DNA of 64,000 bases from Planctomycetota bacterium (GTDB taxonomy: Bacteria; Planctomycetota; UBA8108; SXIK01), in the NCBI GenBank assembly GCA_965223265.1, contig OZ244999.1:4896001-4960000 (forward strand), in the 5' to 3' direction. The position numbers and the translations under genes are program-made. The notes beneath the pieces were generated by a model. That model did no database searches, was not told the origin of the DNA, and saw nothing but the letters and a program-made list of their open reading frames with translations. Of the stretch, positions 17,851 to 29,781 are shown one piece after another; position 1 is the first letter of the stretch, and the number at the start of each line of letters is the position of its first letter.

Positions 17851-17970
17851 GTTTGCGTTTGCGTTTGCGTTTGCGTTTGCGTTTGCGTTTGCGTTTGCGT
17901 TTGCGTTTGCGTTTGCGTGGGCGTTTGCGTGGGCGTTTGCGTGGGCGTGGGCGTGGGCGTGGGCGTGGGC
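17851..17970 (+). repeat. Hexamer tract (GTTTGC)x11 grading into GTGGGC
   Basis: Directly visible. Confidence 0.95.
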
Positions 17971-17971
17971 C

Positions 17972-18296
17972 GAAAGTAGCAGGCACACTCCCGTGTGCCG
18001 TCCGGTCTTGTGTGGGCGTGGGCTGAAAGTAGCAGGCACACTCCCGTGTGCCGTCCGGTCTTGTGTGGGCGTGGGCTGAAAGTAGCAGGCACACTCCCGT
18101 GTGCCGTCCGGTCTTGTGTGTGAGCGTGGGCGTGGGCGTGGGCGTGAGCGTGGGCTGAAAGTAGCAGGCACACTCCCGTGTGCCGTCCGGTCTTGTGTGG
18201 GCGTGTGCGTGGGCTGAAAGTAGCAGGCACACTCCCGTGTGCCGTCCGGTCCTGTGTGTGCGTGTGCGTGTGCGTGGGCGTGGGCGTGGGCGTGGG
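17972..18296 (+). repeat. Five direct copies of a 43-bp GTAG-type REP-like hairpin separated by hexamer runs
   Basis: GAAAGTAGCAGGCACACTCCCGTGTGCCGTCCGGTCTTGTGTG at 17972, 18025, 18078, 18157, 18216; stem GGCACAC/GTGTGCC. Confidence 0.9.
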
Positions 18297-18319
18297 ACCA
18301 GTACGCGGCCTGCGCCTCG

Positions 18320-18590
18320 GTCTCCGTCTCCGTCTCTGACCCGGTCTCCGTCTCCGTCTCTGACCCCGTCTCCGTCTCCGTCTCTGACCCGGTCTCCGTC
18401 TCCGTCTCTGACCCCGTCTCCGTCTCCGTCTCTGACCCGGTCTCCGTCTCCGTCTCTGACCCGGTCTCCGTCTCCGTCTCTGACCCCGTCTCCGTCTCCG
18501 TCTCTGACCCGGTCTCCGTCTCCGTCTCTGACCCCGTCTCCGTCTCCGTCTCTGACCCCGTCTCCGTCTCCGTCTCTGACCCCGTCTCCG
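18320..18590 (+). repeat. 11 x 24-bp tandem repeat GTCTCCGTCTCCGTCTCTGACCC(C/G)
   Basis: TGACC recurs every 24 bp from 18337 to 18577. Confidence 0.95.
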
Positions 18591-18625: not shown

Positions 18626-18674
18626 TTGCCCTCGCCAAATCAAGCTGATAAACTGGATACGCGGATCCAATTTA
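18626..18674 (+). promoter_or_regulatory. rrf2 promoter with overlapping palindromic operator
   Basis: TTGCCC(18626)-17 nt-TAAACT(18649); palindrome AAACTGGAT-ACGCGG-ATCCAATTT at 18650-18673. Confidence 0.7.
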
Positions 18675-18688
18675 TGGAGCGAGCCCCG

Positions 18689-19132
18689 ATGCTCTCCCAG
18701 ACCACCGAATACGCCCTCCGAGCTGCGGTCTGCTTGGCGCGCGACTCCGAGGTCGCCAAGACGACAGCGGAGATCTCGCACGCCACGCAAGTGCCGAGCG
18801 CGTACTTGTCCAAAGTGCTCCAAGGGCTAAGCCGCGCCGGGCTGGTCAAATCGCAGCGTGGCCTCCACGGCGGCTTCATGCTGGCTGAGTCCCCGAGCCG
18901 GGTGACGATCCTCGCGATCATCGATGCCGTCGAACCGATCCGCCGGATCGAGACCTGCCCGCTCGATCTTCCCGGGCACGGAACGAAGCTCTGCGCGCTC
19001 CACAGTCGCCTTGATGATGCGATCGCCCATGTCCAGACAGCGTTCCGAACAACGACGCTCGCCGAGGTGCTCGAAGAGCGCGGCGGTGCCGTGGCGCTCT
19101 GTCCCGTGCCGAAAGAGAAAAAACGCACGTAG
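18689..19132 (+). CDS. Rrf2 family transcriptional regulator
   Basis: [12 protein letters not shown]..., [27 protein letters not shown] wHTH; CPL..HG..LC.LH; GGAG RBS at 18676. Confidence 0.92.
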
Positions 19133-19185
19133 GGGTGACTCAAGACACCCGCGTCATGAAATCCCCGCTCGTCCAATGATTGGGG

Positions 19186-20700
19186 CTACGTCGGCGTCGG
19201 CCCCCGTCTGAGAAGCTCCGTCAAGACTTCGCATTCCTCGACCCCGGTGACGCGCGCGTCGAGGCCTTGAAACTTCACCGACAGGCGATCATTGTTGATC
19301 CCGAGGCAGTGAAGAATCGTCTTGTTGATGTCGGCGATTTTGACGGGTCGCTCGACGATGTTGTAGCTAAAGTCGTCAGTCGCACCGAGTGTCACGCCGC
19401 CCTGGATGCCACCGCCGGCCATCCACATAGTGAAACAGCGAGGATGGTGGTCACGGCCATAGTCGTCGCGCTCCAGCTTCCCCTGGCAGTAAACGGTTCT
19501 GCCAAACTCGCCGCCCCACACGATCAGCGTGTCGTCGAACATTCCGCGCTGCTTGAGATCCCGGATAAGCGCCCACGTCGGTTGGTCGATGTCACGACAC
19601 TGATTACGGATATCCCGCGGCAGCTTGTTGTGCTGGTCCCAGCCGCGGTGAAAGATCTGGATGCACTGAACGTCACGCTCGGCGAGGCGACGTGCCAAGA
19701 GGCAGCTCGCGGCGAACGTCCCAGGCGTGTTGACGTCCGGTCCGTAGGCGTCGAGCACATGCTGCGGTTCCTGCGAAAAGTCTGTGAGCTCAGGAACCGA
19801 CGTCTGCATGCGAAACGCCATCTCGTACTGGGCCATGCGCGCGTTGATTTCGGGATCGCCGATGAGGTCGAAGCGTCGCGCATTGAGCTTGGCGAGTCCA
19901 TCGATGACCGCACGCCTCGTATCACCGTCGACACCGGGCGGATTCGACAGGTAAAGGACCGGGTCGCCCTTGGAGCGCAGCGCAACGCCTTGCATCTTCG
20001 ATGGCAGGAATCCAGAACCCCAAAGGCGCGAGTAGAGTGCCTGGGCACTCTTACGCCCTGTCCAAGTAGGCGTCATGACGACGTAGTTGGGGAGATTCTC
20101 GTTCGACACACCCAATCCGTAGGAAAGCCAGGCGCCAAGACTCGGCCACCCCGGAAGCTCACGCCCCGTCTGGATAAACGTGATCGCCGGGTCGTGATTG
20201 ATCGCGTTGGTGTAGACCGAACGGACAATCGCAAGATCATCGACGAGCTCGCCAGTGTAAGGCAGAAGCTCGCTGACCCAGGCGCCGCATTGGCCACGCC
20301 GATCAAACCGAAACATCGACGGGGCTAAGGGGAGCCTCTTCTGGCCCGAAGTCATCGTCGTGATGCGTTGGCCGCGTCGCACGGAATCGGGCAGGTCGCG
20401 GTCGAAAAGCTCGCGCAGACGCGGTTTGTAGTCGAAGAGATCGATCTGCGAAGGCGCTCCGCCCATGAATAAATAGATGAGCCGCTTCGCCGTCGGCGGA
20501 TGGTGTGGAAGACCGTCGAGACCGCCGACCCGCCTCGGGGCCGTGCTCGTCGCAGTATCGCCCGCCTCACCGCCCGCCGCTGCGCCGAGATGCCGCGTCC
20601 CCGCGAGCGACGCCAGGGTAGCGCAGGTTGCAGCCTGAGCGCTGCGCGTCAGAAGCTGGCGCCGCGTCAGGCGCAAGAGGAGGTCCGTTCGAGAATCCAT
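19186..20700 (-). CDS. DUF1501 domain protein (sulfatase-like, Tat signal)
   Basis: TRRQLL Tat motif; [49 protein letters not shown]. Confidence 0.92.
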
Positions 20701-20708
20701 CGTCTACG

Positions 20709-23700
20709 CTACTCCTTGCTTACGGTCTCGTCGAGGTTCAGAAGCAGGTTGGCCGCGACCGTCCATGCGGCAAGCTCAACCGGTTCAACGTCGGCCGGCG
20801 GCGGCGACTCGCCGACAGCCACGAGCGCGCGAGCCGCCTCGCCGTCGCTGGCGAATCGAGAGCGGCTGGACGCACGGACTTCGAGAACGACCGCAACTTC
20901 GTCGTCGCTGGGGTTCCGGCCGACGACGAGACGGAATCCGAGTCGGGCGCGCTCCTCGTCCGAGAGTCCGTCGCGGCGCAAGAGGCGCGTGGCGAGATGG
21001 CGCGCGGCTTCCACGAACTGTTCGTCATTCATGAGCGTCAACGCTGCAAGCGGCGTGTTCGTCCGCGAACGTCGCACAGTGCACGTCTCGCGTGACGGAG
21101 CATCGAAAGCAACCATCGATGGAGGCGGCGCGGTTCGCTTCCAAAACGTGTACAGGCTGCGGCGGTAAAGGGACCTACCCGTGTCGCGCTGGTAGTTGGC
21201 AGTGTTGCTATCGGTGTAACCTACCGCCTTCCAGATGCCTGACGGCTGATAAGGACGCACCCCCTGCCCACCCAACGTGCGCACCAAAAGGCCGCTGGCG
21301 GCGAGAGCGCTGTCCCGGATGACTTCGGCATCCAGCCGATAGCGCGAACCACGTCCGAGAAGCCTGTTCTCCGGATCGGCACGGTATGCTTCGGCGCTGG
21401 CAACTGACGCCTGTTGATACGTCGCCGACGTCACGAGCATCCGCTGCAGCGCCTTGATGTTCCAACCGCGCTCGCGAAAGTCAGCTGCGAGCCAGTCAAG
21501 AAGGTGGGGATGGCTCGGTTGCTCACCCTGCGAACCGAAGTCCTCGGCCGTTTTCACCAGTCCGACGCCAAACAATTGCTGCCAAAAACGGTTGACGGTA
21601 ACGCGGCTGGTGAGTGGATGCTCCGGCGCCACCAACCATCGTGCCAGGTCGAGTCGGGTCGGGACGGCCCCGTCGTCGATGTCGCTCAGCGGCGGCAACG
21701 CTGCTGGGGTGTCGCGCTCGACGGGCTCGCCAGGCTTGTCATACTCACCTCGGGTGAGGACGAACGCAGGGCGCGGTTCGGCGCGCTCCTTCCAGACGAG
21801 TGAAGCGATCGGACGATCGAGCTCGAGGCCGTGCTGCTTGCGCGCAAGAACGGTGAGTTGGTCACGAACGCGGCGGTATTCGTCGTCGAAATGAGTCAGG
21901 TAGAACGCCTTCAGGCGTGCCGTCTGCGCTTCAGTGCGCTCCGCAGAGGGACTCCTGAGCAAGTCCTGAATCTCATGTTCATGGACGAGATCGCGGACTT
22001 CATCGGGATGAAGAGCCCGTCGCGCCACCCGCACCTCATCGACGATGCCATGAAACGCCGCGTCGCGACTGCGCCGCGCGACGCGTAGTGAAACCTCGGC
22101 GCGGAGAGATCCTTTCAGGCTGTCGTTCTGCGCCACCGTCGTCGCGGGGGCGCCGTCGATGTAGATCCGCACGCCCGCGGCCTCACCGGAGCCGTCGTAG
22201 GTCACGAAGAGGTGACGCCACGCGTCCGGCTCGATCTTTTCCTCGGTCTCGACTTTGATCGCATCGCTCGGCCAAGAGTGCGCTAAATGCGCCATGATGC
22301 GTCCGCGCGAGACGTAAAGGTCGAAGCCACGGTTGCTTTTTTCCTGATCGACGCGTGCCAGCACGGCGCCATGCCGATGCTTCGCATCGAGCTTGACCCA
22401 GGCCCCATAGGAAAACGCCTCGTCCCCATCGAAGTCTGCCACGTCGCCGAGATCGACATACGCCTCACCGCCGACGCGGACAGCGTCGCCAAACTTGCCC
22501 GCGACACGTTCAGCACCACCGGCGAACACCGCGTCTTCCGAAGGCCCGCCGCTGTTCAGGGAAAGATCGCCGGCGGCATCCGTCGCTGCAGCCGCGCCGT
22601 CGATCACCGCAGGAGAGGCGTCCTCGACGCCTGCCTTCGCGACCGCTCCGGGAGCGTCGAATGTCCAGCGCCCGACGAGCCCGAGCTCAGGCATCGCGGG
22701 CGCTGGCCCTTTCGATCTTGCTCGAGTCATGAGCCAGTTGTCGAACGCTGCTTCAGCAGCGGCGCCGCGCGCCTCGAGGTGCTGCCGCAGCTCCGCCGCC
22801 GACGCCTCGAGTGCAGCGAGCTGCGGACGGTGTTCGCGCCTCGCCGCGCGGAGGATAGGCTCCGGCAAGGGACGATTGCCGTCCATGACGGGGCCGTCGA
22901 GGTTGTTGAAAAACGCGAACAGCTGGTAGAAGTCCTTCATGCTGAACGGATCGAACTTGTGTTCGTGGCAGCGCACGCACCCCATGGAGATGCCCATCCA
23001 AACCGTCGACATGGTTGCAACTCGGTCGACGGTGTAGTGAACGTCGTACTCCGCAGGAATGACCCCACCTTCACTCGTCGTGACGTGGGCGCGGCAGAAA
23101 CCGGTTGCGATCCTCTGCTCGACCGTCGCCTCCGGCAGCAGATCGCCAGCGAGCTGCTCAACAGTGAACTGGTCGAACGGCATGTTGCGGTTAAACGCCT
23201 CGACAACCCAATCACGATACGGCCAGATCTGCCGCACGTTGTCGAGATGAAGTCCATGGGTATCACCGTAGCGCGCCGCGTCGAGCCAGTAGCGCCCCAT
23301 GTGCTCGCCGTAGTGCGGCGAGTCGAGAAGTCGGTCGACGACGCGGTCGTAGGCACCGGGGCGTGCATCGGCGAGAAAGGCGTCGACCTCCTCGGGTGTC
23401 GGAGGCAGTCCCGTCAAATCGAGAGTGACCCGCCGAATCAGCGTCGTGCGGTCGGCACGCGGCGAAGGTGCAAGCCCGTTTGACTCGAGGCGCGCCAAAA
23501 CAAAGTGGTCGATCGGTTGCTTGGGCCACTCTGATCTTTGCACCTGCGGAATCGCGGAACGGACCGGAGTCACGTACGACCAATGCTGCGCCCAAGGCGC
23601 GCCTTCCGCGATCCAGCGACGAACGAGCTCGATCTCCTCCGGTGAAAGATCTTTCTTCAGGCGCGGCGGTGGCATGCGTCGACTCTTGCGCGACGTGATC

Positions 23701-24002
23701 AACCGCGTGTAGACGAGACTCTGATCGGGCTCGCCGGGCACGACCGCGAACTCGTCCGAGTCCAACTCGGCGAACAGCCCTTCGCGCGTATCCAGACGCA
23801 GGTCTGCCTTGCGCTGCGCCTCGTCTGGGCCGTGGCAGGCGAAACACTTTTCCGCCAAAAGGGGTCTGATTTGACGCGCGAAGTCAACTCCGCCGTCGCT
23901 GGCAGCGACCTGCTGCGAAAAAGAAGTGACCGCGATCACGACCGTGACAAGGAAGGTGCCAACAGCAGGTGCTCGCGTTCCGCCGAGTCGATTCCATTGC
24001 AT
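20709..24002 (-). CDS. Planctomycete cytochrome C (PSCyt1) + DUF1549 + LamG-like + DUF1553 protein
   Basis: VDFARQIRPLLAEKCFACHGPD, CVRCHEHKFDP, RVTVNRFWQQLFGVGLV, RRSLYTFWKR, TNTPLAALTLMND; LamG-like insert (WRHLFVTYDG, GIVDEVRV); GGAG RBS before ATG 24002. Confidence 0.92.
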   Translation of the reverse strand: MQWNRLGGTRAPAVGTFLVTVVIAVTSFSQQVAASDGGVDFARQIRPLLAEKCFACHGPDEAQRKADLRLDTREGLFAELDSDEFAVVPGEPDQSLVYTRLITSRKSRRMPPPRLKKDLSPEEIELVRRWIAEGAPWAQHWSYVTPVRSAIPQVQRSEWPKQPIDHFVLARLESNGLAPSPRADRTTLIRRVTLDLTGLPPTPEEVDAFLADARPGAYDRVVDRLLDSPHYGEHMGRYWLDAARYGDTHGLHLDNVRQIWPYRDWVVEAFNRNMPFDQFTVEQLAGDLLPEATVEQRIATGFCRAHVTTSEGGVIPAEYDVHYTVDRVATMSTVWMGISMGCVRCHEHKFDPFSMKDFYQLFAFFNNLDGPVMDGNRPLPEPILRAARREHRPQLAALEASAAELRQHLEARGAAAEAAFDNWLMTRARSKGPAPAMPELGLVGRWTFDAPGAVAKAGVEDASPAVIDGAAAATDAAGDLSLNSGGPSEDAVFAGGAERVAGKFGDAVRVGGEAYVDLGDVADFDGDEAFSYGAWVKLDAKHRHGAVLARVDQEKSNRGFDLYVSRGRIMAHLAHSWPSDAIKVETEEKIEPDAWRHLFVTYDGSGEAAGVRIYIDGAPATTVAQNDSLKGSLRAEVSLRVARRSRDAAFHGIVDEVRVARRALHPDEVRDLVHEHEIQDLLRSPSAERTEAQTARLKAFYLTHFDDEYRRVRDQLTVLARKQHGLELDRPIASLVWKERAEPRPAFVLTRGEYDKPGEPVERDTPAALPPLSDIDDGAVPTRLDLARWLVAPEHPLTSRVTVNRFWQQLFGVGLVKTAEDFGSQGEQPSHPHLLDWLAADFRERGWNIKALQRMLVTSATYQQASVASAEAYRADPENRLLGRGSRYRLDAEVIRDSALAASGLLVRTLGGQGVRPYQPSGIWKAVGYTDSNTANYQRDTGRSLYRRSLYTFWKRTAPPPSMVAFDAPSRETCTVRRSRTNTPLAALTLMNDEQFVEAARHLATRLLRRDGLSDEERARLGFRLVVGRNPSDDEVAVVLEVRASSRSRFASDGEAARALVAVGESPPPADVEPVELAAWTVAANLLLNLDETVSKE

Positions 24003-24051
24003 GACGCTCGCTCTCCGTGAGACGGCTGACTCTTGGCTCCGGACCGTCGGC

Positions 24052-25572
24052 TCAAAAATTCGCCTGGCGCGGCAGCCCATCCTGTTCTGGCTCAGGCGAA
24101 GACGAACGTGACGTCGCTTGCGTCGTCGAGACTCCGGAGCCTGTCGAGGGGTCGTCTTGCGCGGTTGCCGCCAAGTACCACTCGTCCGGAAGATCATACT
24201 TCGTTTCACTCACGATCTCGACGATCGCCCGGCGAGTTGCCGCGGTCAGGTGCTGGTACTTTGGGTCCGTGACCGCGCCGCTGAGGACGCTCCACAGCCT
24301 CGAGTAGACGGATTCCTTGGCGGCATCCGGAAGCGCGCCGAAGGCCTCGGAGTAGATCACGTAACTGAGTGGGTAGGCAAAGAGTCGGGTCTTCAAGTCG
24401 AACTGACGGAGCGAACGACCGTGTCGATCACGCTCACCCCGAGCGACGAAATCCGCCGCAAACGTCGATGTGCCGCGCACAGGCTCGTCGAACGTCGCCT
24501 CGTCCACAAAGAGGAGATAGTCAACGAGCGGCTGGACAGCGCTATGCAGTCGCCGCTTCGTCGACGGAGAGAGGTGTGAAGTTTCCTCCCCGAGCATTTC
24601 ACTGACGACTCTTTGGTCCTCGAGCGCGACGCGGGTCAGATAACTTGCGCGGGTGATCAGGTTTTGCGCCTGCGATTGATGCTCGAGGACGAGGAGGGCA
24701 ACCAGATCGCTATCGTCGGTGAGATACGGACTCGTGTCAAAGTAATCGGTCAAGTCGGTGACGTTGGCGCCAGTCCGCCCACCGAGCGGCGTGCCACGCT
24801 CTGCATCCGAGAGCAAATTCCCGAGGTGGCGCTGTTCACCGTGCTCGCCAGTGACATACCAGCCTCCCCAGCGCTCGGCGAGCGGGCTCGTGTGGTCGGT
24901 GAGAAACGTCCCGGCCCTGAGAATTGGACGCCCGTCTGGCGCTGTACGTACGGAGCGAACAAGATGGCCGGGAACGCCCTGCGTCAAGTTGGAGCTATGA
25001 CACTGAAGGCAGTCGTGCGTGCGGCGCACGAGGCGGGGTCGCTCTTCGGTCTGCGAGAGTGTGTAGAAGATCGCACCCTTCTCTGGGTCGACCGCGGAGA
25101 GCTCGAGGACGTCCCCGCCACGCACCCAACCAACATAGACGTCGTCCGAAAAGTAGACGGCACGTGGCGTCACCGGGGAGATGCGTCGCAGTTGGAAGCT
25201 GGTCTTTGAAAAGACGAGCGTCTGTGAGCTGGGCGGGACATTCAAGTTTTTGAGCAGTGAGGCAAGATAGCCCTGCGACCCTCGTTCAAGCGTGACCTCG
25301 CCCGCATCGATACGCTCCTGCAGCTGGCTCACCGGATCTTTCGTGGCGTCCGAGAAGTAGCTGATCGGCTCCTCCTCTAGCGCCACTTGCGCCATCGCTG
25401 GACGCCCCGACACCCCGAGCAGCGCTGCGAGCATTGCGACGCCGAAAGCGCAGAGAGGAGAACAAGCCGGTCGGTGCCGTGCGGAGCGACAACCGACCGG
25501 CAGGACAAGAACCGGGCGATGGATGGGTTCGATGGTGTCTGTGCGTGGGTCCCGGGCCTTGTCTGGGGACAT
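24052..25572 (-). CDS. Secreted hypothetical protein with one CxxCH (putative c-type cytochrome)
   Basis: AGGAGG RBS, signal-like segment, SQTLVFSKTSFQ, CLQCH, ERWGGWYVTG, LVLEHQ. Confidence 0.8.
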   Translation of the reverse strand: MSPDKARDPRTDTIEPIHRPVLVLPVGCRSARHRPACSPLCAFGVAMLAALLGVSGRPAMAQVALEEEPISYFSDATKDPVSQLQERIDAGEVTLERGSQGYLASLLKNLNVPPSSQTLVFSKTSFQLRRISPVTPRAVYFSDDVYVGWVRGGDVLELSAVDPEKGAIFYTLSQTEERPRLVRRTHDCLQCHSSNLTQGVPGHLVRSVRTAPDGRPILRAGTFLTDHTSPLAERWGGWYVTGEHGEQRHLGNLLSDAERGTPLGGRTGANVTDLTDYFDTSPYLTDDSDLVALLVLEHQSQAQNLITRASYLTRVALEDQRVVSEMLGEETSHLSPSTKRRLHSAVQPLVDYLLFVDEATFDEPVRGTSTFAADFVARGERDRHGRSLRQFDLKTRLFAYPLSYVIYSEAFGALPDAAKESVYSRLWSVLSGAVTDPKYQHLTAATRRAIVEIVSETKYDLPDEWYLAATAQDDPSTGSGVSTTQATSRSSSPEPEQDGLPRQANF

Positions 25573-25602
25573 GACTCCTCCTGCTTGGTTAAGATGCGCC
25601 CT

Positions 25603-25634
25603 ATTATATATATCTGGACCTTTATATCCAGTTA
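25603..25634 (-). promoter_or_regulatory. Promoter of cytochrome/PSD1/DUF1501 operon with Rrf2-type palindrome
   Basis: Minus-strand TATAAT at 25608-25603; AACTGGAT-ATAAAG-GTCCAGAT covers the -35/spacer. Confidence 0.7.
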
Positions 25635-25757: not shown

Positions 25758-26996
25758 ATGCAGCACCCCGTGCGACGACGTGCTTTTTTGAAGAAATGCG
25801 GCCTCGGGGTCGCCGGCTTGGCCGCGATCCACAGCCCGCGGATAGCTCTGGGCTACCCAGCGAACGAAACCCTTCGCGTCGGCGCGATCGGCACGGGCGG
25901 TCGCTGCCGCCGCGCCCTGATCCCCGCGGCCAAAAAAGTTCCGGGCGTCAAGATCGTCGCCGCGTGCGATGTTTGGGACGGCGCCCTGGAGCCTGCCAAG
26001 GCGCTCGTTGAGCCGGGGTCCCTGGCGACACGCCACTACGAAGAGGTGCTCGACCGGCGCGACATCGACGCGGTGATCGTCGGCACACCCGATCACTGGC
26101 ACGTCCCGGTGACGATCGATGCATGCAAGGCCGGAAAGGACGTCTACGTTGAAAAGCCGCTGACGTGGAACATCGCCGAAGGCAAGAGCGTCGTCGCGGC
26201 ACAGAACGACCACCAGCGCATCGTACAAGTCGGCATGCAGCAGCGCAGCATGCCGCACTTCAAAAAGGGCTTCGAGATCATCCGCAGCGGCGAGCTCGGG
26301 GAGGTGAACAAAGTTCATCTGACGTGGAACCGCAACTCCAAGCTCCGGCACCGAAAGTTCGGCATCGACCCCAAGAGCGTCGATTGGCGGCGTTGGCTCG
26401 GACGCGCGAAGGATCGCCCGTTCGACGACTATCTCTTGCGCAACTTCCGCTGGTTCTGGGAGTTTGGCGGCGGCATCCTCACCGATCTGATGGTGCACTA
26501 CATCGACGTGGCCAACTGGTTCCTCGATCTCACCCACCCCACCACCGCAGCGTCAATCGGCGATTTCATCCAAGCCAAGGAGTTTTGGGAAACGCCCGAC
26601 TCGATCCAGACACTACTTCACTATCCCGACAAACGGCTCGAGATCTACTTCGAAGGCACGTTTTCCAATGCACGCAACGGCGCCATGCTCGAGTTCATGG
26701 GCCGCAAGGCAACGCTTTACATGGACCGCGGCCACTGCGAAATCCACACCGAGCGGGCGCACGGCGGCGGTGTTCGTGACCTGTCGCCCGGGAAGGACCA
26801 CCGCGGCAGCGACTTCGACCGCAATGTCGACGGCGGCCTTCACCACATGCAAAACTGGGTCGATTGCATCCGCAGCCGCAAGAAGCCGAACGCGCCGGCG
26901 GAAGCGGGGGTCTGGGCCGCCAGCGGTGCTCACCTCGGTAACATCGCGTTTCGCAGCGGCGAGGTGGCACGCTGGAGTGAGCAGGCTTCGGGTTAG
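25758..26996 (+). CDS. Gfo/Idh/MocA oxidoreductase, Tat-exported
   Basis: RRRAFLKK; GAIGTGGR; TPDHWH; YVEKP; VGMQQRS. Confidence 0.92.
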   Translation: MQHPVRRRAFLKKCGLGVAGLAAIHSPRIALGYPANETLRVGAIGTGGRCRRALIPAAKKVPGVKIVAACDVWDGALEPAKALVEPGSLATRHYEEVLDRRDIDAVIVGTPDHWHVPVTIDACKAGKDVYVEKPLTWNIAEGKSVVAAQNDHQRIVQVGMQQRSMPHFKKGFEIIRSGELGEVNKVHLTWNRNSKLRHRKFGIDPKSVDWRRWLGRAKDRPFDDYLLRNFRWFWEFGGGILTDLMVHYIDVANWFLDLTHPTTAASIGDFIQAKEFWETPDSIQTLLHYPDKRLEIYFEGTFSNARNGAMLEFMGRKATLYMDRGHCEIHTERAHGGGVRDLSPGKDHRGSDFDRNVDGGLHHMQNWVDCIRSRKKPNAPAEAGVWAASGAHLGNIAFRSGEVARWSEQASG

Positions 26997-27036: not shown

Positions 27037-29493
27037 TCATCGCGCGTCGAGCATGGCACGCGCGCGCTCCAGATTGCTCTTCGCTTCGGCGTCGTCCGGG
27101 TTGATGGCGAGAGCTGCCTCGAAGTGCTCTGCTGCGACGGCGACGTTGCCGCGGCGAGCGAGGAGGACGCCGAGATTGTTGTGTGCCTTGCCGTAATTTG
27201 GATTGCTCTTGAGGGCCTGTTTGTAGTGCTCGATCGCGGCAGTGAAATCACCACCGCGCGCGAGAAGACGCGCGAGATTGTAGTGAGCCACCGCGTGGTC
27301 CGGAGTGCGCTCAAGCGCCAGCTCATACTGCTTCACCGCACGCTCCGCCTCCCCACGCGCGTCATAAAGCTGGCTGAGCTGGATGTGCGCCTCGACGTAA
27401 TCTGGCCGGATCTCGATCGCTTCGCGAAACCTCGCCTCGGCCACTTCGCCCGCCCCCTCGTGGCGTAGAAGCGCGCCAAGGTTGTAATGCGCCTCTGCAA
27501 GGCGCGGCTCGACCGCGAGCGCACGCTCGTAGTAAGTCCTCGCCTCGGTGAGCTGCCCCCTATCGAAGAGAAGATTCCCGAAATTGGTGAGGAGCTTGTA
27601 GTTCCCACGTTCGACGCTCAAACCTCGCTCGTAGGCACTCGCCGCGGCTTCGAAGCGCCGCAGCTTCGCCAGCGCCATCCCCAAGCTGTTGAGCATCTTC
27701 ACGTCCCGAGGCTGGCGTTCGAGCACGAAGTTGAAGTGTTCAATCGCCTCGGAAAACTCACCGACGTGCGCCAAAGCGAGGCCCAGGCTCGCATGGCCGT
27801 CGACAAACTCGGGCTCCAGCTCGATCGCACGACGATGATGCGACGCCGCCTCGACGTACTCGCCGCGCTTGGCGAGAACCACCCCAGCTTGGTGATGCGT
27901 CAACGCGGTCCCGGGGACGAGCGTCACGGCTCGGAGGGCGAGCTTTTCGGCCTCCTCAGTTTTCCCCGCCCAACTGAGCACCTTCGAAAGATTCCTCAGC
28001 GCCATCCCATGCGCCACGTGATCGATCGACGCTTCCACCTCAGCGGTGACGCGCTCGATAGCCGTCTCTCCCCAGGTATCGCCTGGCTGCACCAATCCAC
28101 GCGCCACCATCTCGTCGACGATGGCGAGTGCAAGTCGTCGATGGCCGTCGATGGTGGGGTGCACATGGTCGAGGAAAAATTCGTCGTCCGCGATTCCCTC
28201 TTGCGAAAGCTTCTCCATGAGTGCACCGAAATCGACCAGCGGTGCGTTCTTCTGTGCTGCGACGTCGGCAACAATTGCAGCCATCGACGTCAGCGCTCTC
28301 AGCGGGCAAACGTCTTCGTCTCGAGCACGTCGTAGGGCCTCTTTCGCTTCATCGATTCGGCCAAGGGCTCGAAGCGCACGACCGCGCAGATAGTGCGCGT
28401 GCGCATGGCGATCGTTGATGGCGAGCGCTTTCTCGACAAGTTCGAGCGCGCCGGCGTGATCCCGCGCGCCATGCTTCTTCTCGGCGGCAGCGAACGTCTT
28501 CGCGAAGGTGTCGATCTGCGATGGCATCAGGCCGGAGCGATGCTCACTCTTGAACGGCGCGCAGGCACCGATGTTGCTCGCAGGCTGCACGACAACAACC
28601 TTGGCCCCGCCCGAGCGCGTCAGATCGATCAGGCGCGCGAGATTGAATCGATAGTGCTCGAGGACGTTCGCAGTCAACTCGTCGTCACGTGTGTAGGCCT
28701 CGAGCCCGACGGAATCGTCGAGTAGAGCCTGCACTTCCCCAGGCAGAAGATCACGCGCGCCTTCCGCCGCCGAAGAATCGTCACTCGCGGGTTCGTCCGC
28801 ACGCGCGCCGTCAGTCGCGGGTGAAGGGCGACGAACGAGTCGGCTGAGGGCAGCCCAAGTGCGCGTGCTCGTCAACAAGGCTTTGAAGCTACGAACAGCT
28901 TCAGGCGTCTCCACGAGCGCTGCGTACGTGCGCCGTTCGAGGAACTCATTGTGACCCGAGTAGATCACGACGAGATCTGGATCGTATCGACTCAGCTCCT
29001 CGACGACAAGGGCGACGCGATAGCTCGCGTAGCTGATGCCGCCGGCGTTGATCACCTCCCAGTGTCGCTTGGGATCAGCCACAGGTAGGAACGCCGCGAG
29101 CCAACCTGCGAACGACGTGGAGGCACGATACGGCCGGCCATACGTCGTAGAGCCGCCAACGCAAAAGATGCGAAACGTGTCTGCGCCTTTCGACTTCGCG
29201 AAGCTCTGCTCGTTAAAGAAGCTGAGCTTGTTCTGAGCCGTCATCATATGGACGTTGCCACTGTCGTCGGTGGTATCGACGAAAAGCGGAATTCGTGTGG
29301 AGAATCCAACGAACGGATCTTCCTCGAGCGTCACCGGCCTGACCCCGACGAGCGCCAGAATCCCCTCTAACGCGACGAAGAAAAGGACCAAGACGACGAG
29401 CGAGAACAGTGTCTTCTTCCACCAGGGAAGCCGCGCCGATCCTCTGCCGCGCACGCGATGTGCACGGCTTTCCCTGCGTTCACGGCTTGACAT
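27037..29493 (-). CDS. Membrane-anchored SGNH/GDSL-like hydrolase with TPR repeats
   Basis: N-terminal TM; GGSTTYG, NAGG, GHNE, DHVHP blocks; many AHYNLG/AHNNLG TPRs. Confidence 0.88.
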   Translation of the reverse strand: MSSRERRESRAHRVRGRGSARLPWWKKTLFSLVVLVLFFVALEGILALVGVRPVTLEEDPFVGFSTRIPLFVDTTDDSGNVHMMTAQNKLSFFNEQSFAKSKGADTFRIFCVGGSTTYGRPYRASTSFAGWLAAFLPVADPKRHWEVINAGGISYASYRVALVVEELSRYDPDLVVIYSGHNEFLERRTYAALVETPEAVRSFKALLTSTRTWAALSRLVRRPSPATDGARADEPASDDSSAAEGARDLLPGEVQALLDDSVGLEAYTRDDELTANVLEHYRFNLARLIDLTRSGGAKVVVVQPASNIGACAPFKSEHRSGLMPSQIDTFAKTFAAAEKKHGARDHAGALELVEKALAINDRHAHAHYLRGRALRALGRIDEAKEALRRARDEDVCPLRALTSMAAIVADVAAQKNAPLVDFGALMEKLSQEGIADDEFFLDHVHPTIDGHRRLALAIVDEMVARGLVQPGDTWGETAIERVTAEVEASIDHVAHGMALRNLSKVLSWAGKTEEAEKLALRAVTLVPGTALTHHQAGVVLAKRGEYVEAASHHRRAIELEPEFVDGHASLGLALAHVGEFSEAIEHFNFVLERQPRDVKMLNSLGMALAKLRRFEAAASAYERGLSVERGNYKLLTNFGNLLFDRGQLTEARTYYERALAVEPRLAEAHYNLGALLRHEGAGEVAEARFREAIEIRPDYVEAHIQLSQLYDARGEAERAVKQYELALERTPDHAVAHYNLARLLARGGDFTAAIEHYKQALKSNPNYGKAHNNLGVLLARRGNVAVAAEHFEAALAINPDDAEAKSNLERARAMLDAR

Positions 29494-29781
29494 CGACGGT
29501 CCTCATGCCGTTGGAGCGTCCCGCAGTTCGTGAGCACTTGTCATGCGTCGCTCAGCCGGCTCCACGGTCAACAGCGATCGAAGGAAAGCGAACAGGACAC
29601 TCACGTTTTGATGCCAAGAATTTCGGCGGAAGTGCAAGCTGACACCCAGTTCCAGGCTACACTGTTCCAAAGAGAAGGCAAGAGCCTACGCAGCGTCCTC
29701 GCTGTGGCGGGCGAAACAAGGAAAACAGACGTGAAACTGCTGGCGCAGATCGCTGCCTCATTCAACAAAGCCAATCTCGGA

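Follow-up and report, generated by a model that had tools for sequence, protein, structure and literature searches.

We analysed a 64,000-nucleotide window of a Planctomycetota genome (assembly GCA_965223265.1, contig OZ244999.1, positions 4,896,001 to 4,960,000) in which a gene for an Rrf2-family regulator, rrf2, converges on a three-gene operon encoding a CxxCH protein of no known family (P0001), a protein with PSCyt1, PSCyt2, Laminin_G_3 and PSD1 domains, and a DUF1501 protein. Two closely similar 22-bp palindromes, termed here operators 1 and 2, lie upstream of rrf2 and over the operon promoter; they are unique in the genome, are conserved upstream of related genes across the phylum, and are linked to the presence of the regulator. 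The explanation we consider likely is that the regulator is an iron-sulfur (Fe-S) repressor of a phylum-wide clade, with these two strong intergenic sites and a very small regulon; what we infer are its binding, which way it controls the genes, its cofactor and its signal. Planctomycetes carry dozens of PSCyt/PSD1 and DUF1501 genes per genome, as well as many c-type cytochromes, for which we know of no role, and to our knowledge almost nothing is known of how these genes are transcriptionally controlled. The genome (a single contig of 9.18 Mb, 61% G+C) is called G000 below, the window being C1:4896001-4960000; other G-codes denote sampled genomes, C-codes their contigs, and L-codes loci extracted from those genomes.

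Two rare palindromes mark rrf2 and the operon promoter

Both palindromes lie where the initial annotation, made from the letters alone, had placed them (Table 1), and the gene content it described was borne out by Pfam and by translation; it had the rrf2 gene right but its ATG one base too far, at 18690. Operator 1 is followed by a GGAG at 18676-18679, between the palindrome and the rrf2 ATG. Operator 2 overlaps a sigma-70 promoter matching at 10 of 12 positions, and covers not only the -35 region, as had been claimed, but also the spacer; in the scanned region the promoter scan found 2 promoter-like sites, against 0.7 expected. Past operator 2 the minus strand reads ATATATAAT, and the P0001 ATG at 25572 is preceded by the Shine-Dalgarno sequence AGGAGGAG.

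The joint pattern of the two sites, AACTGGATN6RTCCARWT, matches twice in the window, at the two operators (0.04 matches expected, 100 shuffles), and across the whole genome only in the same two places, with 5 places at no more than one mismatch and 20 at no more than two. This pattern had been defined after the two sites were seen, and therefore a separate test was built from other genomes, using a symmetric weight matrix of 17 sites with an exact GGAY-N6-RTCC core upstream of rrf2 orthologues, G000 excluded (consensus AATTGGATATTAATATCCAATT). Scanned over all of G000, the matrix gave operator 2 the highest score (25.6 bits) and operator 1 the third highest (21.2 bits), ahead of a fourth match at 18.3 bits, in a test that is only partly independent because the core of the training sites had been taken from the G000 sites. 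The second-ranked match (842721-842742 of C1, outside the window; 22.0 bits) lies 100 nt inside a 557-aa open reading frame (ORF; MSFQGDISSL...) and may be a chance or intragenic site, while the fourth lies inside an ORF that is yajC-like by reading of its translation. The scan of G000 returned no wider regulon, the matches beyond the operators (22.0, 18.3, 18.1, 17.8 bits and below) being inside long ORFs, of which the 557-aa and the yajC-like one were looked at closely, and a second P0001 paralogue of this genome (4121305-4122603) has no upstream site, its best matrix score being -0.5 bits.

We give next to no credence to the idea that the two sites are alike by chance and have no function: they are short, and their joint pattern was drawn up after the fact, but two matches were seen against 0.04 expected in the window, the pattern is confined to two places in 9.18 Mb, a matrix trained elsewhere scores the sites first and third in the whole genome, and they are conserved upstream of both gene families (see below).

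Elsewhere in the window, two weak matrix matches (11.7 and 9.1 bits, scores not significant alone) lie 39 bp apart at 29591-29651, 100-160 nt upstream of a minus-strand gene (27037-29493) for an 818-aa GDSL-lipase/TPR protein. In G108 and G366, too, a GDSL-lipase gene is transcribed divergently from the neighbouring P0001 homologue, and in G172, G082 and G325 such genes are found near rrf2.

The operator recurs upstream of rrf2 orthologues and P0001 homologues

Of 401 genomes sampled from the phylum, 64 encode relatives of the Rrf2 protein that are 42-58% identical to it, and 49 have homologues of P0001; the Rrf2 clade is encoded in 30 of these 49, versus 34 of the 352 genomes lacking P0001. 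We examined up to 350 nt upstream of rrf2 at 31 non-G000 orthologue loci, and YTGGAY-N6-RTCCAR was present, with at most one mismatch, at eight of them (L018, L034, L036, L038, L040, L044, L049 and L053). At these loci, which include families other than the host's, it is often present as two copies about 35-48 bp apart, the proximal copy beginning about 32-45 nt before the ATG; operator 1 begins at -38. When 4-mer inverted repeats were counted with no prior motif, TGGA-N8-TCCA came first upstream of rrf2, at 5 of the 31 loci (maximum of 3 in 100 shuffles). An exact 5-mer palindrome count was also tried and was too weak, with counts of 2-3, the 4-mer version being used in its place.

Upstream of P0001 homologues the matrix gave matches of at least 15 bits at 13 of 29 non-G000 loci (L062-L064, L069, L072, L076, L077, L079, L081, L082 and L085-L087), from 8 genera and 3 families; apart from the pair of sites at rrf2 in G414, those ~122 kb contained no further match of this strength. 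Every one of the 13 belongs to the 22 loci of genomes that encode the Rrf2 clade, and none to the 7 loci of genomes without it (G323, G002, G392, G058, G274, G092 and G109). A loose pattern, AANTGGAYN6RTCCNNTW, was found at 10 places in five complete genomes, four upstream of a P0001 homologue (G190, G108, G366 and G082) and one upstream of rrf2 (G190); four of the remaining five score below 14 bits, three of these lying in long ORFs and the fourth (G108) no more than 70 nt from the listed start of a 335-aa ORF, at its 5' edge, and the fifth is a 17.8-bit site in G297. In the 4-mer count TGGA-N8-TCCA again came first upstream of P0001, at 5 of 29 loci, with a shuffle mean of 3.1 and a maximum of 5. 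Relatives of rrf2 and homologues of P0001 are, moreover, direct or near neighbours in six genomes (G005 C123, G311 C11, G414 C41, G238 C18, G339 C21 and G402 C16).

The palindrome also appears to accompany one variant of the recognition helix: YL(S/R)KVLQ goes with an upstream site of at least 16 bits at 13 of 18 loci (G000 included), YLAK at 1 of 10 and YLSK(I/V)M at 0 of 4, an association that is confounded by phylogeny and by the training of the matrix on some of these sites. The initial annotation had proposed an operator shared by rrf2 and the operon, and its recurrence upstream of both gene families and its tracking of clade and helix support the two sites being a single type of operator tied to this Rrf2 clade. 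Several rrf2 orthologues do lack the motif, as might be expected if the palindrome were bound by another regulator and its place beside rrf2 were incidental; its restriction to clade-encoding genomes, its fixed distance before rrf2 starts in several families and its tracking of the helix variant argue against this, and we regard such an arrangement as very doubtful.

In five genomes (G005, G002, G108, G366 and G297) pattern matches away from the rrf2 and P0001 genes are intragenic or low-scoring. The exception is the G297 site mentioned above (L103 1501-1522; C1:5254685-5254706), which is followed after 137 nt by an unknown 253-aa ORF and has an Nramp transporter gene on its upstream side; in G297 it might mark an additional member of the regulon. 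On C123 of G005 (L003/L030), where an rrf2 of 56% identity and a P0001 homologue diverge, the intergenic sequence holds a different, AT-rich palindrome around AAAGATAAAAGG; the matrix match there reaches only 11.1 bits, which may reflect drift of the operator.

The CxxCH protein as the conserved target

Because sites recur upstream of P0001 homologues in genomes with the Rrf2 clade (13 of 22 loci) and in none without it, the conserved target of the operator is the CxxCH protein and not the PSD1/DUF1501 pair. The initial annotation had tied the whole module to Rrf2, which holds for its CxxCH gene, whereas the DUF1553/DUF1501 pair follows that gene in this taxonomic order only. Among the 30 P0001 loci of the phylum sample a PSD1-type gene comes after the homologue at two (G000 and G005 C165), and DUF1501 adjoins it once (L067); among further genomes of the same order, PSD1 directly follows P0001 in G012, G014 and G016 and is divergent from it in G003. 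P0001 and PSD1 are therefore linked in this order, Rrf2 and P0001 across the phylum, and G000 combines the two.

The P0001 family consists of proteins of roughly 440 aa in which a single CxxCH is kept in 30 of 30 homologues. P0001 itself joins this motif to a hydrophobic signal-like N-terminal segment, the combination by which c-type cytochromes are recognised, and heme attachment is predicted. It has no Pfam, NCBIfam or PDB sequence match, and in the Atlas it groups with clusters named hypothetical or putative cytochrome c from Acidobacteriota, Planctomycetota and Verrucomicrobiota. Its AlphaFold (AF2) model (pLDDT 84.8) has a beta-rich N-terminal half with the heme motif and a helical C-terminal half. 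Foldseek against the PDB returned nothing at E <=0.001 for the whole model or for the heme domain, and a wide VIA search with the whole model gave no clear fold match (best Z 7.1, helical hairpins only). With the heme domain (the N-terminal half) modelled alone (pLDDT 68.5), VIA placed cytochrome P460 chains at ranks 1, 2 and 4 of 48,161 representatives (2je3, Z 4.5; 6hiu, Z 4.4; 6amg, Z 4.1) and also listed cytochrome c' (8brk, Z 4.3; 7s5o, Z 3.3), the two families making up 5 of the top 7 matches. PF16694 (cytochrome P460/c'-beta) matched 0 of 27 family members, and hhalign against 13 true planctomycete P460 domains aligned the CxxCH motif only (probability 10.6%); a P460-like fold of the modelled heme domain is thus offered as a lead only.

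True P460 domains occur in 29 of 201 sampled genomes of the phylum, and G000 itself has, outside the window (C1:5891523-5892962; L120), a 587-aa frame with three tandem cytochrome P460 domains (99.2, 96.5 and 31.5 bits).

The regulator belongs to a clade with a Cys-His-Cys-His loop

The Rrf2 protein scores above cut-off with PF02082 (95.9 bits, cut-off 30; residues 2-129) and TIGR00738 (103.3 bits, cut-off 73.3), and below it with the NCBIfam equivalogs for IscR (TIGR02010; 52.1 vs 207.55), NsrR (NF008240; 51.7 vs 182), RirA (48.6 vs 193), CymR (47.7 vs 195) and the SUF regulator (66.1 vs 110.65). Because all of these equivalog models and the three-Cys feature fail, we file it under the Rrf2 family only, as what its sequence suggests is a new clade nearest RsrR. 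The best solved relative is likewise RsrR of Streptomyces venezuelae, a [2Fe-2S] protein (PDB 6HSD, 6Y45; E 5.7e-10 with a single sequence and 1.5e-20 with a profile).

The three-Cys site of IscR, NsrR and RirA is absent, and the loop reads C90-x6-H97-x4-C102-x2-H105. C90, P91, L92, H97, C102, H105 and D109 do not vary among 36 homologues, at least 90% of which retain E7, and C138, which stands in a PLC motif, is present in 27 of 32. The initial annotation had recognised this pattern and the lack of three cysteines; its residues are renumbered here (E7, C90, H97, C102 and H105), and it had missed the mostly conserved C138. To us this residue pattern suggests an Fe-S cluster that Cys and His (and Glu) would ligate together.

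A sister subclade (subclade 2; L104-L108, in G339 C21, G311 C11, G238 C18, G402 C16 and G253 C87) is 44-46% identical to the Rrf2 protein and has a loop one residue shorter, CPLGLxSHTxLCPLH. Its upstream palindrome is roughly AATTnTACACC...GGTGTAnAATT, with no matrix matches, and its rrf2 adjoins a P0001 homologue in 4 of the 5 loci (G311, G238, G402 and G339).

A proposed mechanism of repression

We propose that the 147-aa protein would act as a dimeric repressor of an undescribed, phylum-wide Rrf2 clade, and that its dimer would recognise the 22-bp palindrome (consensus AAyTGGAy-N6-rTCCArTT). At operator 1, which overlaps the presumed start region of the rrf2 transcript, binding would lead to autorepression; at operator 2, over the -35 and spacer of the operon promoter, it would block RNA polymerase and repress the genes for the new monoheme CxxCH protein, the PSCyt/LamG/PSD1 protein and the DUF1501 protein. 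The cluster would probably be [2Fe-2S], as in RsrR, with C90 and C102 as likely ligands together with H97, H105 or both, to which E7 from the partner subunit and possibly C138 may be added, and the protein would leave DNA when the cluster is modified or its redox state changes, for example by nitric oxide (NO) or O2. Such a system would resemble known Rrf2 repressors in its palindromic operator, its autoregulation and its promoter occlusion, the binding itself being predicted.

Some Rrf2 proteins, IscR among them, are reported both to activate and to repress, and the present one might similarly be an activator, or a dual regulator, at the operon promoter. The -35 hexamer TGGATA lies within the operator, and a bound protein would be placed where an activator could touch RNA polymerase; RsrR, too, is described as both activating and repressing (PMC5015018). 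The site takes in the -35 and almost all of the spacer, however, and the promoter is close enough to consensus (TATAAT, 10/12) that it should be strong unaided, and the proximal sites at rrf2 and its orthologues end about 10-22 nt before the start codon, as is typical of occlusion. Activation at this promoter therefore seems to us unlikely, and repression remains the reading that we prefer.

Several observations weigh against an Fe-S repressor acting at these two sites, in addition to the partial independence of the matrix test. The sequencing runs listed for this stretch are 4, from one study, and none is recorded as RNA. At rrf2 the promoter scan called no sigma-70 promoter; the initial annotation had operator 1 overlapping the -10 of rrf2, and this stands only as a putative extended -10, read by eye. 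Just 8 of the 31 rrf2 orthologue loci carry the palindrome within one mismatch, 16 of the 29 P0001-homologue loci have no matrix site of at least 15 bits, and related genomes are not independent, so that the positive counts overstate their support. Same-order relatives that keep the P0001-PSD1 gene order have no operator: G012 and G014 have no match to the Rrf2 protein at E <=1e-10, and G016, the one relative to keep synteny (at the end of a contig, with rrf2 and DUF1501 converging), lacks a site at rrf2 and has no matrix match of at least 9 bits in 9 kb around the operon, and no palindrome common to the operon region and the region upstream of rrf2. The initial annotation had named beforehand, as an outcome that would speak against it, a motif not conserved upstream of orthologues; the motif is there at 8 of 31 rrf2 and 13 of 29 P0001 loci and absent in syntenic G016, which by that measure is the strongest result against the proposal. 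This negative appears softened by the different recognition helix of the G016 Rrf2 (YLAK), since the operator seems to go with another variant. As for the cluster, the ligands were assigned by alignment and conservation, and in RsrR the cluster is held by Glu8, His12, Cys90 and Cys110; RsrR H12 corresponds to Arg11 here, and RsrR C90 falls in an insertion, unaligned with C90 of this protein, although the two other invariant His might take their place.

Neighbouring genes hint at NO, O2 or redox as the signal

The initial annotation had proposed redox, NO or iron as the signal, at which only neighbouring genes hint. In G339 the P0001 homologue is directly preceded, on its own strand, by a gene for NO-inducible flavohemoprotein (Hmp; NF009805, 530.5 bits, cut-off 432), and this pair and a subclade-2 rrf2 are transcribed divergently. 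In G172 and G414 it is a protoglobin gene that diverges from rrf2, with operator sites between; the cbb3 oxidase subunit gene ccoN comes right after rrf2 in G041; and in G005 a gene for a ResA-like thiol-disulfide oxidoreductase and an rrf2 paralogue have an operator-bearing intergenic region in common. All of these neighbours have heme, O2, NO or cytochrome-maturation functions, which hints at NO, O2 or redox. No Hmp above cut-off was found in G000. We consider NO a possible signal and a broader redox or O2 signal a somewhat better candidate, the remaining weight going to iron or heme status or to something else.

As a refinement of the repressor explanation, the signal could be specifically NO. 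The clade would then correspond to NsrR in planctomycetes, and the CxxCH protein would be a heme protein with a P460/c'-beta-like domain that handles NO or hydroxylamine. The Hmp gene beside P0001 in G339, the protoglobin genes with operator sites between them and rrf2, and the P460 and cytochrome c' chains among the top matches of the modelled heme domain all point this way. But the Z values of these chains are all below 5, and Foldseek, PF16694 and hhalign gave them no support; G000 is without Hmp above cut-off, the Hmp case concerns subclade 2, with its different palindrome, and ccoN and the ResA-like gene point elsewhere. We therefore keep the NO-specific version as a possibility rather than an expectation.

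A bolder version, which we put forward as speculative and rather improbable, is that of a new kind of Fe-S factor, an NO or redox sensor whose cluster would be held by 2 Cys and 2 His (with Glu7 from the partner) in a Rieske- or mitoNEET-like manner, and whose single conserved target would be a new P460-like heme-c family handling NO or hydroxylamine, partnered with PSCyt/PSD1-DUF1501 in this order. We know of no Rieske- or mitoNEET-like ligation in Rrf2 proteins. If this sensor reading were true, the abundant PSCyt/PSD1-DUF1501 modules would gain a first physiological context; and if the signal is NO or redox more generally, one PSD1/DUF1501 module would be linked to that physiology.

Returning to the Fe-S repressor of two sites, what the analysis provides is a concrete set of regulator, operator and target that recurs across several families of the phylum and is open to testing, its 22-bp site being ready for use in gel shifts, reporter fusions and regulon scans. 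The conserved target that emerges is an unannotated family of ~440-aa monoheme proteins, and the invariant Cys-His-Cys-His loop may extend the known ways in which Rrf2 sensors hold a cluster. Searches of the literature (subscription journals being outside their coverage) on Rrf2 in Planctomycetes, on Rrf2 with protoglobin and on NsrR in planctomycetes found no description of this system, and with the same coverage no paper was found that deals with both DUF1501 and DUF1553.

Gene arrangement and other features of the window

The features are collected in Table 1. The listed ORF of the second operon gene opens at 24209, upstream of the ATG that we prefer; the latter, 49 nt past the P0001 stop, was chosen because a signal-peptide-like sequence (MQWNRLGG...) and the onset of homology are found there. 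This gene scores above cut-off with PF07635 (61.7 bits), PSCyt2 (PF07583, 294.4 bits) and PSD1 (PF07587, 342.1 bits). The DUF1501 gene starts 8 nt beyond the PSD1 stop, and a 53-nt gap separates it from the convergent rrf2.

Table 1. Positions of the regulator, the operators, the operon and a neighbouring gene in the window
Feature	Position	Strand	Basis and remarks
rrf2, 147-aa Rrf2-family regulator	18689..19132	+	PF02082 and TIGR00738 above cut-off; MLSQTTEY N-terminus aligns with orthologue starts
Operator 1, 22-bp palindrome AACTGGAT-N6-ATCCAATT	18651..18672	+	17 nt between its end and the rrf2 ATG (18689)
Putative extended -10 of rrf2, TGnTAAACT	18646..18654	+	read by eye, inferred only; overlaps left arm of operator 1
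Operator 2, 22-bp palindrome AACTGGAT-N6-GTCCAGAT	25633..25612	-	over -35 and spacer of operon promoter
Sigma-70-like operon promoter, TGGATA, 16-nt spacer, TATAAT	25630..25625 and 25608..25603	-	promoter scan, 10/12 matches
Operon gene 1, P0001, 506 aa, signal peptide, one CxxCH (C188, C191, H192; CLQCH)	24052..25572	-	translation
Operon gene 2, PSCyt1/PSCyt2/Laminin_G_3/PSD1 protein	20709..24002	-	Pfam; likely start ATG 24002
Operon gene 3, DUF1501 protein, 504 aa	19186..20700	-	PF07394, 483.7 bits, above cut-off
Gfo/Idh/MocA oxidoreductase, twin-arginine-like N-terminus	25758..26996	+	Pfam and NCBIfam; divergent, 125 nt from operator 2; any control by the operator hypothetical

The 740 bases upstream of rrf2 at 17851-18590 are dense in tandem repeats, comprising the hexamers GTTTGC and GTGGGC, a 53-bp unit present 3.2 times with a GC-rich hairpin, and a 24-bp unit present 11.3 times at 97% identity. 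Since the 321-aa ORF that runs over these repeats is of low complexity (GSETETET and HAHA/NANA runs) and has no Pfam match, this stretch probably encodes no protein.

Comparison with known systems

Like RsrR, the regulator would hold its cluster with a ligand set that is not three cysteines and that includes His (predicted here); its E7 aligns with RsrR E8, and its C102 with RsrR C110, the Cys before the dimerisation helix. Unlike RsrR, it has two invariant His (H97 and H105) in its Cys loop, and its operator is of 22 bp (11-0-11 or 8-6-8) as opposed to the 11-3-11 of RsrR. RsrR is reported to have two full palindromes in the intergenic region beside its own gene (PMC5015018), which the two sites, about 35-48 bp apart, of several orthologues here resemble; the same paper gives 117 ChIP-seq peaks and 630 ChIP-exo sites for RsrR, beside which the regulon here looks tiny.

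With NsrR, the NO-sensing [4Fe-4S] repressor of E. coli and Streptomyces coelicolor, the system has in common the Rrf2 fold, a palindromic operator over promoters, and a small regulon with heme and NO-related genes, a relative of the clade lying beside hmp in G339. The three-Cys motif of NsrR is replaced here by C-x6-H-x4-C-x2-H, and the NsrR operator sequence is not known to be related to the palindrome of this study. Both proteins have an acidic N-terminal residue, E7 being at the position that matches D8 of the S. coelicolor protein (ScNsrR), which is reported to be a cluster ligand there (PMC5411485).

The loop also invites comparison with that of IscR. This protein holds a [2Fe-2S] cluster in Cys3His fashion (C92, C98, C104 and H107), with the spacing C-x5-C-x5-C. 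In that numbering the two agree in the 12-residue distance from first to last Cys and in a His three residues past the last Cys (C90, C102 and H105 here); they differ in that the middle Cys is absent here and a His (H97) stands one position further along. Unlike in IscR systems, there are no isc or suf genes near rrf2.

Lastly, the second and third genes of the operon are clear members of the PSCyt/PSD1 (DUF1549/DUF1553) and DUF1501 pairs of planctomycetes. What sets the pair described here apart is the gene ahead of it, for a CxxCH protein outside any known family, and the putative Rrf2 operator under which it lies.

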